Shown here: piece by piece, positions 765 through 32,948 of the stretch
How the letters are laid out: each line of letters opens with the position of its first letter
Position numbering within the stretch: position 1 is the stretch's first letter
Program-made: the position numbers and the translations under genes
Notes under the pieces: generated by a model
What the model was told of the DNA's origin: nothing
Seen by the model: only the letters and a program-made list of their open reading frames with translations
Databases searched by the model: none
Assembly (NCBI GenBank): GCA_013154225.1
Contig: JAADCW010000009.1
Coordinates: 1 to 34,881 of the forward strand
DNA from: Chloroflexota bacterium
GTDB lineage: Bacteria > Chloroflexota > Anaerolineae > Anaerolineales > DRMV01
Length of the DNA: 34,881 bases
Reading direction: 5' to 3'

Positions 765-5105
<4,341 letters not shown>

Positions 5106-5290
5106 GCAACAGCCTCCTGAAAATAGCGGTCGGCAAAACGGATTGGCCCTTAGCCCCCTGGTGTGAATTATTGGGAGTGTTTTTCGCTTGCGAAGGTGTA
5201 TAGACACATAAAAGCAAGCGCTTTGAGAATTCCCGCTCTCAAGCGCTCGCTCAAGCGTTTTTGCTCCGCTATTCCTCGCATGTTGCCCAC

Positions 5291-5319
5291 ATTATAACAA
5301 AAGGGGCAGGGGGCGGCAA
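5291..5319 (-). promoter_or_regulatory. strong sigma-70 promoter for rpoC (extended -10)
   Basis: The minus strand reads TTGCCG (5319..5314), a 17-nt spacer, then TGT-TATAAT (5299..5291). It begins only about 15 nt after the stop of the upstream kinase gene and predicts a roughly 180-nt rpoC leader. Confidence 0.6.
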
Positions 5320-5333
5320 GGTTTTTGATAATA

Positions 5334-8300
5334 TCAGACGTCTTCTTTGGGTTGGCGCAAGGGTAGTTGGATGAAGAAGGTGCTCCCTTGGCGAAGTTGG
5401 CTTTCGACCCAAATGCGGCCATGATGACGCTCGACAATGGATTTGACAATGGAAAGCCCCAGGCCGGTGCCTTTTTCTTTGGGCTGGTCTCGGCGCACGA
5501 CGCGGAAGAATTTTTCAAACAGGCGGGGTTGGTCCAGCGGGGAGATGCCCACGCCGGTATCGCTCACGCCCAGGATGATGCCGGTGTCGCCCGCGGGTTT
5601 GGCAAAAATGGTGACCGTGCCACCTTCGGGGGTGTATTTGATGGCGTTGTCCACCAGGTTGTGGAGGGCGCGATCCAGCAAAACCGGGTCGGCTTCAACC
5701 AGGGGGGGCGCGTCGGGCGCGATGTCGGTGCGCAGGGTGATGTGTTTTTGCTGGGCGCGGGGTTGCCAGCGTTTGGTGATGTCTTCGATGACATCCAGCA
5801 CTGAGACGAGTTGCGGCTGCAAGCCTACCCCGGCTTCGATGCGTCCCAGGTCCAGCAGGTTGTTGACCAGTTGGGTCATGTCTTCCACGCCCTGCTGGAT
5901 TTGCTGGATGTAACGCTTTTGGCGTTCGTTGAGTTCGCCGACCATTTCCAGCATGGTGATGTAGCCCCGCATGAGGGTCAGCGGTGCGCGCAGGTCGTGG
6001 CTGACGGTGGCGACGAATTCAGATTTCAGCGCGTCCAGTTCTTTGAAGTGGGTGACGTCGCGGAGGATGCAAACGCGCCCGACTTCGTGATGGCTGGTGC
6101 GCACGCTGGCCACGGTGGCGAAATACACCCGGCCGTTGAGGGTGATTTCTGCGGAGTAGGGCGGCGGGTCTTTGCGGCGAAGCAGTTGGATGAGGTCTTC
6201 GGTTTGGATGGCTTCTTCCAGGGGGAGGTTGAGCTGCCGCTGGATGGGAAGTTGTTCAAACGCGGCCGCGTTGGCCAGGATGAGGCGTTCCTGGTTGTCG
6301 GTCACCAGGATGGGATCGGGCGAAGCATTGATGACCGCGGTGAGCCGTTGATGGCGCACTTCGGCCATGAAGTAGAGGCGGGCGGTGTAGGCGGCCATTG
6401 CCATTTGCATGGCCAGGGTGCTGATGTAGCGCACCTCTTCGTCGGTGAAGGTGTGCGGGGTGTTGTAGATCAGGTAGAGCACGCCCAGGAAGCGCTGTTC
6501 GTATTGAAGGGCAACGGCCAGAATGGCTTTGGGCGGCGTTATGCCCGAGGGCATTTGCAGGGTGGTGCTGTGTTCCAGGTTGGTCAGCCGCAGGGGCGAA
6601 CGGCTGCGCACCAGGGGCAGAATTTGCGGATCCAGGCTTTGGTAGCGATCTGCATCAAGCCCTTTGCCAAAGTGCAAGGGATAGTCGTCGTTCCAGTCGT
6701 CGGGCAGTGCCTCGGGGGAAAGGGCTACGCGCGCCACGGTCGCGCCGCTGGCAAGCGCGGCTTCCAGGACCGCTTGGGCGGCATCTTCAACCCGCAGAGA
6801 GGCGGCCACGCGCTGGCTGGTTTGCAGAAGGCGGTTGAGTTCGTCCATGCGTTTGCGCAACCGCTGACGCATGTTCTCAAAGGCCTGCCCCAACTGGCCT
6901 ACTTCGTCCATGCTGTTGATTTCCAGGGCATGATCTAACTGCCCGCTGGCCAGGGATTCTGTGGCCTGGGTGAGTTCCCGCAGGGAGCGGGTGAGGCGGC
7001 GCAGTAACAGCCCGGTGATGCCAACGCCTACCAACGAGAGCATCAACACCCATAAAGTGAGGGGCCAGGCGTTGTTGAGGGCGATTTCCTGCAGGTTGCG
7101 GGCTGGCGCGGCAACGACAATGAGCCACGATGAGCCTACGGCCTGGGTGGTGTAGGCGAGGTAGCGTTCACCAAGGGCGCTGTGAATGTCAGCAGGCCCC
7201 AGTTTGTCGTTGCTGATGGCGGTTTCCATCCACTGCATGTCAGGGGCCGTGGCGTAGAGGATCTGGTGTTCGTTGTCTAAGATGAGCGCGCCGCCGCCAA
7301 TGTTGGAGAGGGTGGCCAGCCCTTTGACGATGGGTTCGGCATAAGGGTTGTTGCCCAGGGAAGCACGCCCGATGAGGAAGCGCGGTTCTGGGGGCGCCTC
7401 TTGGTTTTGGCCTTGCAAGTTTTGATCTTGTGGAAGCGGTAAGGACGCCGCGAAGACCACCAGGGCCTTTTTGACGCCTGAACTGGTTTCGGAGGCGTCT
7501 GCAGGCGCGGGCGCGGTTACGGTCAGGTGTGTGGCAATGGGCGCGTCTTGCATCTCGTTCGATGCAAGGAAGTGGAGGACGTACATGCGCTCAGGGGCAA
7601 GCAGGGTTTCGTTGGGCGGGTAGGAGGCAATGGTATTCCCCTGTGCGTCCACCAACAACATTTCGTTGAAGAAGAAGCTTTCGGTAAGGAGTTGATGCAG
7701 GTATTCGTTGAGTTGGGGGGAGGGTTCCTGCCACAGCGCTTCATCGTGGGCTAATTTACGGATGAGCGAATCGCCGTTTTCGGTGAAAAACGGCATGCTT
7801 TTTGCCGCGATGTTGGCTGTGCTGGAAAGCCGCTCGGTGAGCATTTCCCTGGCCGACCGTTGGGCCATGACCCAGTTGCCGAGCAAAATCCCGATAACCA
7901 CAGCGCCCATGATGCCGGCCATGACCACCAGGAATTTGTAATGCAAGGAGCGGCTCCAGGAAGAAAGGCGGGCTGGGCCGTGATAGCCCCACAGGTGCTT
8001 TTGTTTGTCGTGGGCTATTTGAGCCACTACGCCCGCAATCAGGAGTTCGATGAATTTGTAAAGGGTGAAAATGCCAATGTGGCTGAAGGCGTAATCTACT
8101 CGGGCGGCCAAGGGAGAGTTGCCCAAGGTGAGCACGCCAAAGATAAAAAGGAAGGGGTAAATCGCGGTGAGGAGCACCGCGGCAATGAGCGGTTGGCGGA
8201 TTAAACGGTAGAAACGCTCTCGATATGGTTGCCAGATTGCCCAGCCAAACAGCAGGGCTAAAACGGCTTGCACAAAAGGCTCAAAGGTTAAATGGCTTCC

Positions 8301-28153: not shown

Positions 28154-29458
28154 TTAGCCTTCTTCTTTGACGATTTCTTCCAGCATGGCCGTGGTGACCG
28201 ACTTCGGGCGTTCGATGGGGTGCCCGAGCGCGCGGGCCCACACGGTGTTGGCGGTCACGCCCAGGGAGCGGCCCACGCCAAACATCACGGTGTAGAAGTC
28301 GGATTCGGTCACGCCGTAGTGCTGTTGCAGGGTGCCGCTCAGCGCGTCCACGTTGGGCCACGGGTTCTTGGCCTTGCCGTGTTCCTTCAGCACATCGGGA
28401 ATGACCTCGTAGGCCACCTTCGCGGTCTGGAACAAGGGATCGTCGGGCATGTGTTCCAGCGCGAACTCGAACTGCGCTTTGTAGCGCGGGTCGGTGCGGC
28501 GCAGCACCGCGTGGCCGTAGCCGGGGATGACCTGGCCGCTGTTCAGGGTATCCCACGCGTATTTGCGCATTTGCTCGTGGGTGGGCACGCCGCCGAATTC
28601 GTCCATCACGCCCTTGAGCCAGTAGAGGCAGTTTTGGTTGGCCAGGCCGTGCAAGGGGCCAGCCAGGCCGTCCATGGCCGCGGAGAAGGCGTAATAGATG
28701 TCGGAAAGCGCAGACGACACCAGGTAGGTGGTGTGCGCGCTGACGTTGCCGCTCTCGTGGTCGGAGTGGAGGATGAAGTACAACCGGCTCAAGTTGCGGT
28801 AGTCTTCGGTGTCAATGCCCATCATGTACGCGAAGTTCGCGCCCCAGTCCAGGTCGGGGTTGGGGGCAATGAATTTGCCGTCTTTGTATTTCAGGCGGTA
28901 GATGTAGGCCGCGATGGCGGGCAGTTTGGCCGTCAAATTGAGGACGTCTTCCAGCATGGGGTCCCAGAAGTCGGCCTTCTTCAGCCCTTCCTTGTATTTC
29001 TTGGCGAAAATGGAAGTGGGCTGCAGGGCCAGCACCGCGGTCGCGAACATGGTCATGGGGTGCGCGTCTTTGGGCATCGCCTTCAGGACGTCGAAGACGT
29101 GCTGCGGAATTTCACTGCGCTTCTTCCATTCTTCTTCCACCGAGAGGGCTTCTTCTTTGGTGGGGAATTCGCCCACCAGGAGGAGCCAATACAGCCCGCC
29201 GACGTAGGGCATATCGCCCTCTTTGGGCTTGGGCAGTTTTTCCAGCACTTCGGGGATGGTGTGGCCGCGGAAGCGGATGCCTTCGTAGGGGTCCACGTAG
29301 GAAATGTCGGTCACCAGGGCTTTCACGCCCCGCATCCCGCCCAGGATCTGGCGCATATGCACCTGGTCCACGACGACATCGCCGTGTTCCTTTGCCAGTT
29401 TGCGCTGGCGTTCACGCCATTCAGGGATGATGGCGGCAAGACGTTCTTTGAGCAACAT
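28154..29458 (-). CDS. gltA: citrate synthase, eukaryotic/mitochondrial-like type (434 aa)
   Basis: The protein is collinear with pig-heart-type citrate synthase. Matching blocks are GGMRGVKALVTDISYVDPYEGIRFRGHTIPE, HSDHESGNVSAHT, GLAGPLHGLANQ, PGYGHAVLRRTDPRY and KNPWPNVDALSG. GAGGAGG precedes the ATG. Confidence 0.93.
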   Translation of the reverse strand: MLLKERLAAIIPEWRERQRKLAKEHGDVVVDQVHMRQILGGMRGVKALVTDISYVDPYEGIRFRGHTIPEVLEKLPKPKEGDMPYVGGLYWLLLVGEFPTKEEALSVEEEWKKRSEIPQHVFDVLKAMPKDAHPMTMFATAVLALQPTSIFAKKYKEGLKKADFWDPMLEDVLNLTAKLPAIAAYIYRLKYKDGKFIAPNPDLDWGANFAYMMGIDTEDYRNLSRLYFILHSDHESGNVSAHTTYLVSSALSDIYYAFSAAMDGLAGPLHGLANQNCLYWLKGVMDEFGGVPTHEQMRKYAWDTLNSGQVIPGYGHAVLRRTDPRYKAQFEFALEHMPDDPLFQTAKVAYEVIPDVLKEHGKAKNPWPNVDALSGTLQQHYGVTESDFYTVMFGVGRSLGVTANTVWARALGHPIERPKSVTTAMLEEIVKEEG

Positions 29459-29530: not shown

Positions 29531-30466
29531 TTAAATCAGGCCGAATTCGGTCAGTTTGGCTACATTGGATTTCACATGATCGGCCGATTTCTTGAACGCG
29601 GCCATTTCCTCTTCGTTGAGGTCGTATTCGATGACCTTTTCCACGCCCTTGCGGCCCAGCATGGTCGGCACGCCGATGAAGATGTCGTGCATGCCGTATT
29701 CGCCATCCAGGTAGGAAGTGGCGGGCACGATGAGGTGCTTGTCTTTGATGATGGCTTCGGCCATCTGCGCCAGGGCTGCCGCGGGCGCGTAGAAGGCGCT
29801 ACCTTTCTTGAGCAAGGAAACGATTTCGCCGCCGCCTTTGCGGGTGCGCTCAACAATGGCGTCCAGTTTCTCTTTGGGGAGGTATTTCTCCAAGGGAACG
29901 CCCGCGATGTTGGAGTGGCGGGTCAGGGGCACCATGTCGTCGCCGTGGCCGCCGAGCACGTAGCAGTGGATGTTTTCCACGCTCACGCCGGTTTCCATCG
30001 CGACGAAGGCGCGCATCCGCGCGGAGTCCAAAATGCCCGCCTGGCCAACAACACGGTAGGAAGGCAGACCGGTGACCTTCCAGGTCAGGTAGGTCATGAC
30101 GTCCAGGGGGTTGGTGAGCACAATGTAGATGGCGTCGGGGGATTGTTCCTGGGTTTTGCGCGCGACGTCGGCCACGATTTTGGCGTTGGTGACCAGCAGG
30201 TCGTCGCGGCTCATGCCGGGTTTGCGGGGCAGGCCCGCGGTGATGATGACAATGTCGGAATCTTTGGTGTCGGCGTAGTCGTTGGTGCCATAGATTTTGG
30301 CGTCTTTACCCACCACCGGCATGGCCTCGGTGAGGTCGAGGGCTTTGCCTTGGGGCATGCCTTCAACGATGTCCACCAACACGATGTCGGCAATCTCGCG
30401 TTCGGCCAACCAGTGCGCGGTGGTCGAGCCGGTCATGCCTGCGCCAATAATAGAAACCTTTGCCAT
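29531..30466 (-). CDS. mdh: malate dehydrogenase (LDH-like MDH family, 311 aa)
   Basis: The N-terminus is MAKVSIIGAGMTGSTTA (Rossmann fold). ITAGLPRKPGMSRDDL carries the Arg at the MDH/LDH specificity position. The catalytic region is VLGGHGDDMVP. GAGGAGG precedes the ATG. Confidence 0.93.
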   Translation of the reverse strand: MAKVSIIGAGMTGSTTAHWLAEREIADIVLVDIVEGMPQGKALDLTEAMPVVGKDAKIYGTNDYADTKDSDIVIITAGLPRKPGMSRDDLLVTNAKIVADVARKTQEQSPDAIYIVLTNPLDVMTYLTWKVTGLPSYRVVGQAGILDSARMRAFVAMETGVSVENIHCYVLGGHGDDMVPLTRHSNIAGVPLEKYLPKEKLDAIVERTRKGGGEIVSLLKKGSAFYAPAAALAQMAEAIIKDKHLIVPATSYLDGEYGMHDIFIGVPTMLGRKGVEKVIEYDLNEEEMAAFKKSADHVKSNVAKLTEFGLI

Positions 30467-30603
30467 GGGTTACCTCCTCGGAAAACATTGATGACACAGC
30501 CAGGCGGCTGTGGGGTGCGAACTTGACCTCTTTTGTACATCATAATCTAATTGACAGGGCAGAGGTAGTTACACTTGTCACTTCCGCTCTGCTTCTGCCA
30601 AAC

Positions 30604-30631
30604 AAAAAACTCCCCTGAAGGCTCAGGGAAG
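30604..30631 (-). terminator. rho-independent terminator overlapping the trxB stop codon
   Basis: The minus strand reads CUUCCCUGA-GCCU-UCAGGGGAG, a 9-bp stem with one G-U pair (30631..30610), followed by UUUUUUGUUUG. Confidence 0.7.
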
Positions 30632-31561
30632 TTTTTCTGTGTCTTCTAAAAAGTGAATGGCTTCCATCGCGGCGGCCGCGCCCATACCTGCCGATGTGAT
30701 CACCTGGCGGTAGCGGCTATCGGCAACTTCACCCGCGGCAAACACGCCCGGGATGTTGGTGTGCATGTGTTTGTCCACTGCGATATAGCCGCGTTCGTCC
30801 AGGGTGAGTTGGCCTTCAAAGAGGTCGGTGTTGGGATGGTAGCCAATGAAAATGAAGACGCCCGCGATGGGATGTTCCCGCTCTTCGCCCGTGGGCACGT
30901 GGCGCAAGCGCACGCCTTCGACCATGTCTTCGCCCAGGATTTCGGTGACCACGGTGTCCATGAGGAAGCGGATTTTGGGGTGTTCGCGGGCGCGTTTTTG
31001 CAGCAAGGGGCCAGCGCGCAGGCGGTTGCGGCGATGCACGATGGTCACGCTGTTGGCGTAGCGAGTGAGGAAGAGGGCTTCTTCCAGCGCGCTGTCGCCG
31101 CCGCCTACCACCATGATGTCCATGCCTTTGAAGAAATGGCCGTCGCACGTGGCACAGTAGGAAACGCCCATGCCAATGAGTTCATCTTCGCCGGGAATTT
31201 CCAGTTGTTTGGCTGTGGCGCCTGTGGCCACGATGACGGTGTCGGCGGTGTATTCGGTTTTGGTGGTGCGGATGCGGAAGGGGCGCTGGCTGAAATCCAC
31301 GGCTGTGGCCGTATCGAGCACCAGCCGCGCGCCGAATTTTTCGGCCTGCTCTTTGAAGCGGTTGACCAGGTTGGGCCCTTCAACGCCTTCGGGAAAACCC
31401 GGATAGTTTTCGACGATGTAGGTGATGGCGACCTGCCCTCCGAGTTCGGGCCCGGTGAGGATGATGGGCGCCAGATCCGCGCGCGCGGCGTAGAGCCCTG
31501 CGGCTAAACCCGCGGGGCCAGCGCCTAAAATCAGCAGTTGCGTGTGTTCGGGAGACGTCAT
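30623..31561 (-). CDS. trxB: thioredoxin-disulfide reductase (NADPH-dependent, canonical)
   Basis: The 312-aa ORF has the FAD motif ILGAGPAGLAAG, redox CATC, GGGDSALEEA and the NADPH 2'-phosphate motif HRRNRLR (31016..31036). Confidence 0.92.
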   Translation of the reverse strand: MTSPEHTQLLILGAGPAGLAAGLYAARADLAPIILTGPELGGQVAITYIVENYPGFPEGVEGPNLVNRFKEQAEKFGARLVLDTATAVDFSQRPFRIRTTKTEYTADTVIVATGATAKQLEIPGEDELIGMGVSYCATCDGHFFKGMDIMVVGGGDSALEEALFLTRYANSVTIVHRRNRLRAGPLLQKRAREHPKIRFLMDTVVTEILGEDMVEGVRLRHVPTGEEREHPIAGVFIFIGYHPNTDLFEGQLTLDERGYIAVDKHMHTNIPGVFAAGEVADSRYRQVITSAGMGAAAAMEAIHFLEDTEKLP

Positions 31562-31576
31562 CGTCCCTCGTCGAGG

Positions 31577-32551
31577 TTATTTGTTTTGGGCTTGGAGATA
31601 TTCCCGGACGCCGATCGCGGCTTTGGCGCCATCGCCCACGGCCACGGCCACCTGAGCCAGGTTGCCGGAGCGCACGTCACCGGCTGCAAACACGCCGTCA
31701 ACATTGGTGCGCATGTGGTTGTCGGTGATGATGTAGCCGCGCTCGTCCAGTTCGACAAAGCCCTTCACAAAGTCAGTGTAGGGTTGATAGCCCACGTAGA
31801 TGAAAACGCCCTTGGCCGGGATTTCTTTGATTTCGCCGCTTTCGCGGTCCTTGACCACCACGGTGTGGACGAAATCGTCGCCTTTGATTTCCACGGCCAT
31901 GTGCGAGAAGTAGCACTTGACCTTGGGATGGTTGACCACCCGGTCTTGGAGCACTTTCTCAGCAATGGAGTAGGGCAGAAATTCCACAAACGTGACCGAC
32001 TTGGCGTATTCCAGCAGAATTTGGGCTTCTTGCAGGCCGGAGTTGCCGCAGCCGATCACCACCACATCCTGGTCTTTGAAGAGGGGACCGTCGCACGTCG
32101 CGCAGTAAGAAACGCCCTTGTTGGCGAATTCTTCTTCGCCCGGGATGCCCAATTTCTTGGGGCGGCTGCCCGTGGCCAGGATGACGGTGCGGCCTTTGTA
32201 AACCGCGCCGCCGCTGGTGGCAATTTCAAAAATGCCGTCGTCGTTTTTCTTCAGGCTGGTGACTTCTTCAAATTCGACGATCTGCGCGCCAAAGCGTTTG
32301 GCCTGCTCGGCAAATTTTTCCATCAATTCCGAGCCGTCAATGCCTTCGGGAAAACCAGGGTAGTTTTCAATCAGATGGGTGGTGGCGGCCAAACCACCGC
32401 TGGCTTCCTTTTCCAGCACCAACGTGTCCCAGCCATCGCGCGAGGCGTAGATGGCCGAGGTCAAACCAGCGGCGCCGGCGCCAACCACAACCAGGTCGTA
32501 AATTTTGTTGGTATCGGCTTGAGCACCGCCGTCGATGTTGAGTTGGAACAT
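31577..32551 (-). CDS. thioredoxin-reductase-like flavoprotein lacking the NADPH-binding motif (324 aa)
   Basis: It has the FAD motif VVVGAGAAGLTSA and CATC (32093..32104), but GCGNSGLQEA replaces GGGxSAxEEA. VEFLPYSIAEK (31955..31987) replaces HRRxxxR. AGGAGG precedes the ATG. The gene ends 15 nt upstream of trxB. Confidence 0.8.
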   Translation of the reverse strand: MFQLNIDGGAQADTNKIYDLVVVGAGAAGLTSAIYASRDGWDTLVLEKEASGGLAATTHLIENYPGFPEGIDGSELMEKFAEQAKRFGAQIVEFEEVTSLKKNDDGIFEIATSGGAVYKGRTVILATGSRPKKLGIPGEEEFANKGVSYCATCDGPLFKDQDVVVIGCGNSGLQEAQILLEYAKSVTFVEFLPYSIAEKVLQDRVVNHPKVKCYFSHMAVEIKGDDFVHTVVVKDRESGEIKEIPAKGVFIYVGYQPYTDFVKGFVELDERGYIITDNHMRTNVDGVFAAGDVRSGNLAQVAVAVGDGAKAAIGVREYLQAQNK

Positions 32552-32618
32552 GTGTTACCTCCTGATGGCAGTCTTTCCCGCTGGGGGAGATGGGCTTGTT
32601 GTCACAGCGCCCGGGGGT

Positions 32619-32647
32619 ATTATAACTCCCGGGCGCTTGTGAACCAA
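32619..32647 (-). promoter_or_regulatory. putative sigma-70 promoter for the TrxR-like/trxB pair
   Basis: The minus strand reads TTGGTT (32647..32642), a 17-nt spacer, then TATAAT (32624..32619). The -10 sits in the loop of the inverted repeat agcgcccggg/cccgggcgct (32607..32636). Confidence 0.4.
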
Positions 32648-32666: not shown

Positions 32667-32948
32667 TTACTCTTCCACGATGGCCAACAGGTCGCTGGCT
32701 TCCATGATGAGGTGTTCCACGCCGTCGATTTTGATTTCGGTGCCGGTGTATTTCGGGTAGAGCACCTTCTGCCCCACCTTCACGGGGATTTCTTCTTCCT
32801 CGTCGCCGATAGCAATGACTTCACCGATTTGGGGCTTTTCTTTCGCGGTTTCCGGCAGCAGAATGCCGCTGCTGGTGCGGGGTTCTTCGTCTTCAGGGCG
32901 AATCAAAACACGGCTACCCAGCGGTTGGATTTTGATCTTGTCTGCCAT
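32667..32948 (-). CDS. groES: co-chaperonin GroES (93 aa)
   Basis: The sequence is MADKIKIQPLGSRVLIRPEDEEPRTSSGILLPETAKEKPQIGEVIAIG...VKVGQKVLYPKYTGTEIKIDGVEHLIM. GGAGGT lies 7 nt upstream. No groEL follows. Confidence 0.93.
   Translation of the reverse strand: MADKIKIQPLGSRVLIRPEDEEPRTSSGILLPETAKEKPQIGEVIAIGDEEEEIPVKVGQKVLYPKYTGTEIKIDGVEHLIMEASDLLAIVEE

Follow-up and report, generated by a model that had tools for sequence, protein, structure and literature searches.

A tandem pair of thioredoxin reductase genes in an Anaerolineae bacterium: a probable NADH-type flavoenzyme beside the canonical NADPH-dependent TrxB

Genes A and B are two adjoining genes for low-molecular-weight (low-Mr) thioredoxin reductases (TrxRs) in a 34,881-nucleotide (nt) stretch of DNA from a Chloroflexota bacterium of the class Anaerolineae (assembly GCA_013154225.1, contig JAADCW010000009.1), and the whole of this stretch is called the window below. 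Gene B is a canonical trxB and gene A is a paralogue without the NADPH signature. Among the described enzymes with which A can be compared, AhpF (alkyl hydroperoxide reductase subunit F) is NADH-preferring. Yang and Ma are said to have shown in 2010 that the TrxR of Thermotoga maritima (TmTR) reduces a Grx-like protein that resembles a protein disulfide oxidoreductase (PDO). Cp34 of C. pasteurianum (with Cp9 and Cp20), which Reynolds, Meyer and Poole reportedly described in 2002, prefers NADH, coexists with a canonical NADPH-dependent TrxR and has a dedicated redoxin. The TrxR of Thermoplasma acidophilum (TaTrxR) was initially taken for a nucleotide-independent enzyme, but later work showed that NADH serves as its donor and NADPH does not (PMC6262447, citing Susanti 2017). 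TmTR and TR3 of Desulfovibrio vulgaris (DvTR3) both prefer NADH and lack the HRR motif (PMC5627308). In Sulfolobus solfataricus and Pyrococcus electrons pass from NADPH through TrxR and PDO to the Bcp peroxiredoxins (PMC7465337).

The comparison made here suggests that gene A probably encodes a functional low-Mr TrxR-type flavoenzyme with an NADH-type Rossmann site, which would reduce PDO or thioredoxin beside the NADPH-dependent TrxB.

The nucleotide site of gene A

Both proteins score above the curated cut-off of TIGR01292 (343.45 bits), A with 356.1 bits and B with 394.5 bits, and they are 45% identical over 258 aa. In A the FAD motif GxGxxG is GAGAAG (residues 24-29) and the redox CATC is C150-C153 (32093..32104). 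The first-pass annotation of the window had described two low-Mr TrxR genes 15 nt apart, and all its coordinates and motifs proved correct. It had also stated that A lacks the NADPH 2'-phosphate signature but retains the FAD motif and CATC. This was confirmed by alignment with E. coli TrxB, in which E190, F191, L192 and I196 of A stand at the positions of H175, R176, R177 and R181, so all three 2'-phosphate arginines (R176, R177 and R181) are gone. The NTR signature (GxGxxA plus HRRxxxR) is absent from A, which has GCGNSGLQEA at residues 167-176 (GCGNSG, 167-172) and VEFLPYSIAEK at residues 189-199 (31955..31987). Gene B carries the NADPH-type signature, GGGDSALEEA plus HRRNRLR (31016..31036), and its best PDB matches are NADPH-type TrxRs. 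The N-terminus of A (residues 1-6, 32534-32551) follows the pattern MF[SQK]LN[LIV], which is kept across most of the A clade and has no counterpart in B; residues 1-9 are unstructured in the model of A, with pLDDT below 50.

In place of the NADPH signature A carries GxGxxG (G167, G169 and G172) together with Glu190, which closes strand beta-2 of the Rossmann fold, and this combination is the fingerprint of an NADH-type site. In the AF2 model of A (mean pLDDT 86.9) Glu190 is the final residue of the strand formed by residues 185-190. The nucleotide domain is of full length, with 113 of 113 residues aligning ungapped to M. tuberculosis TrxR. The same arrangement is seen in E. coli AhpF, which reads GGGNSG…VTLLEFAPEMKADQVLQD where A reads GCGNSG…VTFVEFLPYSIAEKVLQD, and in TaTrxR (3CTY), which reads GGGNSG…VTIIEYMPKYM. 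The two parts of the fingerprint were compared across 174 TrxR-family sequences (150 cluster representatives at 50% identity, minus those outside 250-700 aa, plus references). GxGxxA is found with His in 106 of the 174 and GxGxxG with Glu in 32, and Glu is present in 32 of the 33 sequences that have Gly at the last position of the glycine motif.

Close homologues of A form at least 120 clusters with 59-100% identity, and conservation was counted over 120 of them. The CxxC cysteines are present in 120/120, G172 in 117/120 and E190 in 117/120, and with conservation at this level the absence of the NADPH motif is not a chance degeneration. In the three exceptions, a subgroup that includes the A-type protein at 5001-5981 of locus L012, all the nucleotide-site positions are switched together, to GYGDSA, Y190 and K192; the L012 protein also has Arg at position 196. 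This subgroup may represent a reversion towards NADPH or another specificity. Because G172 and E190 switch together in the exceptions, they behave as expected of cofactor-specificity determinants. The nucleotide site of A has thus not been lost and bears the NADH-type signature, and the motifs and the characterised homologues suggest that NADH is what it uses.

The structural comparison points in the same direction. With full-length A as the query, the PDB ranking is headed by the Thermosipho africanus TrxR (7JYP, E = 2e-86) and by TaTrxR (3CTY, 3e-75), followed by NADPH-dependent TrxRs and AhpF (about 1e-59). Further down are DTR (5J60, 4e-59), DvTRi (5NII, 3e-38) and FFTR (6GNA, 4.7e-33). 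The model of A superimposes on 7JYP with TM scores of 0.89 and 0.95 and a root-mean-square deviation of 1.4 Å at 48% identity; against DTR (5J60) the TM score is 0.54. In a FastTree phylogeny A lies among GxGxxG/Glu sequences with inner-clade support of 0.85-0.97, and all members of its clade are of this type except the L012-like switch variant. Gene B falls into the clade of E. coli TrxB (support 0.995). The GxGxxG/Glu state occurs in at least five separate clades of the tree, the deep nodes of which are weakly supported. The possibility that A is a recent duplicate of B was rejected, as the two proteins are only 45% identical and fall in separate clades.

A possible PDO partner and the distribution of gene A

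The close homologues of A come from metagenomes, and those with names are labelled 'Anaerolineae' or 'Chloroflexi bacterium'. An orthologue of A (at least 59% identity) is found in 6 of the 201 sampled genomes of the class. In seven loci (L013 and L020-L025) the gene that directly adjoins the A orthologue on the same strand encodes PDO, a double-thioredoxin-fold protein some 215 aa in length, and in L012 the genes for PDO and Grx flank an A-Cpn10-B cluster. The genome of the window (G000) also has a PDO, at positions 5028-5675 of contig C210 (1489-2160 of L016, minus strand). It scores 281 bits against TIGR02187 (cut-off 185), has P. furiosus PDO (1A8L) as its best PDB match with E = 3.5e-44 and is homologous to the N-terminal domain of AhpF, as indicated by matches to 1ZYN and 1HYU and by partial matches to TIGR03140 and TIGR03143. 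Both elements of a TrxR/PDO system are therefore present in one genome, and they are genetically linked at other loci. On C210 the PDO gene is followed by a YruB-type Grx gene. Downstream of these two lie a gene for a NifX/MrpORP-like protein of 137 aa (L016 739-1152) and one for a ResA/TlpA-like membrane thiol-disulfide oxidoreductase with a WCPPC motif (L016 169-732), and together the four make up a small thiol-redox cluster. A canonical thioredoxin, on contig C24, and homologues of Bcp/Prx are also encoded in G000.

Five genomes that are 92-97% complete (G160, G089, G046, G199 and G062; loci L020-L025) have the A-type protein as their only TrxR-family match, and NADPH-type TrxB was not detected in them. 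Since it is the sole TrxR in these near-complete genomes, the A-type protein must be a competent primary reductase. In L024 and L025 a gene for OsmC is also found near the A-PDO pair.

Three steps are proposed for the action of A. NADH would reduce the FAD bound to A, the FAD would in turn reduce the CATC disulfide, and the resulting dithiol would reduce a partner redoxin, most likely PDO (TIGR02187) and possibly thioredoxin too. The chances that PDO is this partner are slightly better than even. A and PDO would then be in effect a split AhpF, a TrxR/PDO (Grx-like protein) system of the type found in Thermotoga and thermophilic archaea, and could hand electrons to peroxiredoxins and oxidised proteins. 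Reducing power for disulfides would come from the NADH pool as well as the NADPH pool, by way of one operon that also holds the only groES detected in the genome. If A and B shared a redoxin, a thiol-mediated NADH/NADPH transhydrogenase cycle would result; separate partners (PDO for A and thioredoxin for B) would avoid it. The CDGPLFK loop, which is common to A and AhpF, was considered as a sign of a PDO partner and was rejected, because PLF is also found in 18 of the 106 HRR-type TrxRs.

Two further observations were made in the survey of the class. PDO (TIGR02187) is above the family cut-off in 134 of the 201 Anaerolineae-class genomes and a lone in-frame TGA in about 50 of the PDO matches listed points to variants of PDO that contain selenocysteine. 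A second group of TrxRs with an NADH signature (GGGNSG[FL][QE]EG … VEF.P) is common in the class, in loci L026-L033, L036 and L039 (genomes G071, G017, G064, G012, G085, G112, G042, G161, G036 and G187). The frames of this group are about 400 aa or more, and in representative clusters (390-440 aa) the alignment begins near residue 85, so that an N-terminal extension of some 90 aa is implied, possibly a fused redoxin domain.

Other donors and substrates

Several points weigh against an NADH-fed A with PDO as its partner. The characterised homologues behind the cofactor assignment are only 45-48% identical to A, and in the closest structure, 7JYP, GGGDSA and Gln stand in place of GxGxxG and Glu; a literature search on the cofactor use of this Thermosipho africanus TrxR turned up nothing. 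No FFTR, DTR, DFTR or DvTRi sequences are in the tree, where support for the deep nodes is low (0.74-0.85), and the relation of A to FFTR, DTR, DDOR, DFTR, DvTRi and TmTR was placed by PDB E-values, fold scores and motif tests and not by phylogeny. In the genome of the window, an assembly that is 77% complete, the PDO gene is on another contig and not adjacent to A. Other Anaerolineae families have PDO beside an HRR-type TrxR (G015), which means that PDO linkage is not specific to the NADH-type enzyme. Dual specificity must also be considered, as TmTR uses both NADH and NADPH (PMC5627308).

This last point leads to the alternative that A works mainly with NADPH, or with both nucleotides equally, through residues outside the motif, and is a TrxB isozyme that is redundant, stress-specific or directed at another substrate. 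Such an enzyme would fit the score of A above the TIGR01292 equivalog cut-off, and where E. coli TrxB has R181 some A orthologues keep a basic residue, Lys or Arg (EFLPTSK, EFLPYSR). However, NADH-specific AhpF also has Lys at this position, and a Glu that closes beta-2 as a rule repels the 2'-phosphate. The first-pass annotation had pointed to compensating Arg residues as a way in which the 2'-phosphate pocket could be rebuilt. The window protein has Phe, Leu and Ile in place of R176, R177 and R181, and no such Arg occurs among its residues 186-199. NADPH as the main or an equal donor is therefore considered unlikely.

A second alternative, and the one favored by the first-pass annotation, is that A does not use pyridine nucleotides at all and is fed by ferredoxin or flavodoxin (as FFTR and DTR), by F420H2 (as DFTR) or by some other donor (as DvTRi). 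A shares the fold, the FAD, the CxxC pair and the absence of HRRxxxR with FFTR, DTR (the cyanobacterial FFTR), DDOR, DFTR and DvTRi, and DTR-type enzymes have been reported in some Chloroflexi by Buey and co-workers (PMC8154056). TaTrxR, with the same motif type, was likewise at first described as NAD(P)H-independent, but proved later to depend on NADH (PMC6262447). The five families show a pocket that is degenerate or remodelled, an aromatic tail at the C-terminus (DTR and DDOR) or F420 dependence, none of which is seen in A (PMC8154056; PMC5627308). Clostridial FFTR is characterised by a shortened or degenerate pseudo-NADPH domain without the glycine motif and by clustering with the FFTRs of C. 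acetobutylicum and C. pasteurianum, and the clostridial enzyme (6GNA) aligns to only the first 46 of the 113 residues of the A nucleotide domain; A has no deletions in this domain and its glycine motif is intact. The defining feature of DTR is a C-terminal tail, the conserved Trp of which stacks against the FAD and also binds ferredoxin (PMC8154056). The first-pass annotation had suggested looking for the FAD-stacking aromatic of DDOR and DTR at the C-terminus, but A ends six residues past Tyr318, and among the 120 homologues any aromatic residue is found in the tail of three and Trp in none. In DvTRi GEGxxAxN and TQ/NGK replace GGGxxAxE and HRRD (PMC5627308), and neither is found in A, which has GCGNSGLQEA and VEFLPY. 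A DFTR requires an organism that makes F420, and CofH (TIGR03551), the sole F420 gene searched, was not found in G000 (77% complete) or in four other carriers of A that are 92-97% complete. FFTR, DTR and DvTRi also rank far below the NADH-type enzymes among the PDB matches, and the near-invariant GxGxxG co-varies with Glu190 as expected of an NAD-binding site. A donor other than a pyridine nucleotide is thus improbable. What survives of the proposal that one locus draws on two donors is that the two genes very probably do have different donors; the NADH fingerprint, the intact domain, the lack of a Trp tail and the absence of cofH matches in the five carriers searched indicate that the second is most likely NADH and not ferredoxin or F420.

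A related idea is that A takes its electrons neither from NADH nor from NADPH but from another donor, through the retained Rossmann cleft. The likelihood of this is slight. If it were true, the A clade, which is widespread in Anaerolineae metagenomes, would be a new donor class of TrxR and in several families the only TrxR. That the role of A in vivo is not redoxin reduction but that of an NADH oxidase, a diaphorase or a low-molecular-weight disulfide reductase is very improbable, for although TrxR-fold enzymes include NADH oxidases, and TmTR directly reduces DTNB and benzyl viologen (PMC5627308), the CATC pair is invariant, the adjacency of PDO is conserved and five near-complete genomes, in which a reductase for thioredoxin or PDO is needed, have no TrxR other than A.

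An NADH-type A has consequences for annotation. In surveys and in automated annotation, TrxRs without GxGxxA and HRRxxxR are often all classed as 'non-NTR, probably FFTR' (for example by the criterion of PMC10880999). Many such Chloroflexota proteins carry a clean NADH signature and should be annotated as likely NADH-dependent. The results also suggest that Anaerolineae, which are abundant in digesters and sediments, widely reduce disulfides with an NADH-fed TrxR/PDO system, hitherto studied in thermophiles, and that some of them have no other system for this. The tandem NADH/NADPH pair is a natural system in which to study the determinants of cofactor specificity and the avoidance of a futile thiol-mediated transhydrogenase cycle.

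Gene order, groES linkage and comparison with known systems

The genes in the window are arranged on the minus strand in the order groES, A, B, mdh and citrate synthase (Table 1). AGGAGG is located 8 nt ahead of the ATG of gene A. The short spacer between A and B, with the ribosome-binding site of gene B in it, implies co-transcription and coupled translation, and groES, A and B are likely to be co-transcribed. The hairpin at the gene B stop codon is followed by a T-run and probably ends the groES-A-B transcription unit, which would then be separate from mdh and citrate synthase. In the spacer between groES and A, the loop of the inverted repeat holds TATAAT and the stem is extended by longer imperfect arms (…TTGGTTCACAAGCGC / GCGCTGTGACAACAA…). 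No U-tract follows this repeat, which could be an attenuator, a processing site, an operator or an internal promoter. A CIRCE operator (TTAGCACTC-N9-GAGTGCTAA) was not seen upstream of groES when the sequence was read by eye, without a pattern search.

Table 1. Features of the groES-A-B region and its downstream neighbours in the window
Feature	Position	Strand	Remarks
groES (Cpn10, 93 aa)	32667..32948	(-)	Pfam Cpn10, E = 1.8e-28; first gene of the cluster
Perfect inverted repeat, 10 bp, GC-rich (AGCGCCCGGG / CCCGGGCGCT)	32606..32637	(-)	groES-A spacer; read from the sequence
Gene A, low-Mr TrxR-family flavoenzyme, 324 aa	31577..32551	(-)	NADH-type nucleotide site
A-B spacer, 15 nt	31562..31576	(-)	GAGGG, ribosome-binding site of gene B; read from the sequence
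Gene B, canonical NADPH-dependent TrxB, 312 aa	30623..31561	(-)	GGGDSALEEA, HRRNRLR, CATC
Terminator-like hairpin (CCCTGA-GCCT-TCAGGG, then GAGTTTTTTGTTT)	30601..30628	(-)	Overlaps the gene B stop codon; read from the sequence
mdh	29531..30466	(-)	Downstream of gene B
Citrate synthase (CS)	28154..29458	(-)	Downstream of mdh

Linkage of Cpn10 to A and B recurs in L009-L012 and L014. L009 and L010 (72% identity) have Cpn10-A-B-mdh-CS, and L011, L012 and L014 (61-67% identity) have A-Cpn10-B, so the association is conserved with rearrangement. The Cpn10 genes of L011 (7118-7399) and L014 (6127-6408) are the only groES in their 3.2-Mb genomes (G201 and G202), each of which has a single groEL on a different contig from groES. 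In G000 the Cpn10 of the window is the only PF00166 match, and Cpn60 was not found in this genome (77% complete). With a lone groES beside the TrxR genes and groEL elsewhere, groES in this lineage is uncoupled from groEL and linked to disulfide reductases. An operon that wires the sole groES, apart from groEL, to an NADH/NADPH reductase pair as a combined unit of proteostasis and redox control is more likely than the new donor class considered above.

Of the known enzymes, TaTrxR (3CTY; 47% identity, E = 3e-75) is like A in being a low-Mr enzyme with CxxC and GGGNSG in which a Glu closes beta-2 (IIEYMPKYM), without HRRxxxR and without a C-terminal tail. It differs in being archaeal and in belonging to another clade of the tree. 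Its organism has no other TrxR, whereas in the window a canonical TrxB adjoins A. We know of no PDO partner for TaTrxR. Thermosipho africanus TrxR (7JYP) is the best match in both sequence and fold and has 'LPY' in place of 'RRD', but it falls among HRR-type sequences in the tree. TmTR is likened to A by description and not by sequence, and its reported Grx-like partner matches the A-PDO gene pairing found here.

AhpF of E. coli and Salmonella resembles A in its TrxR-like half, which has GGGNSG, VTLLEFAPEMKADQVLQD and the CDGPLFK loop. A is not itself an AhpF, as it scores 261.4 bits against TIGR03140 (cut-off 502.9) and covers only profile positions 206-512. It starts at the FAD fold and, unlike AhpF, lacks a double-Trx domain fused at the N-terminus; PDO has a gene of its own and there is no adjacent ahpC. 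The archaeal TrxR/PDO systems share the chain from nucleotide to TrxR to PDO, and the PDO encoded in G000 is a TIGR02187 equivalog whose nearest structure is P. furiosus PDO (1A8L). They are fed by NADPH, in contrast to the system proposed for A (PMC7465337). The same review (PMC7465337) places PDOs exclusively in thermophiles, against 134 of 201 genomes of the Anaerolineae class here.

DvTR3 is like A, by description, in being an NADH-preferring low-Mr paralogue that coexists with a canonical NADPH-dependent TrxR, and it has a dedicated redoxin (PMC5627308). The DvTR3 gene adjoins its own Trx3, whereas A adjoins trxB and groES. NADH-preferring low-Mr TrxRs and TrxR/PDO systems are thus already known, and what is new here is the lineage. 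Specific to this lineage, and of modest interest, are the placing of A in tandem with trxB, the linkage to the only groES and the frequency of PDO across a class that is largely non-hyperthermophilic.

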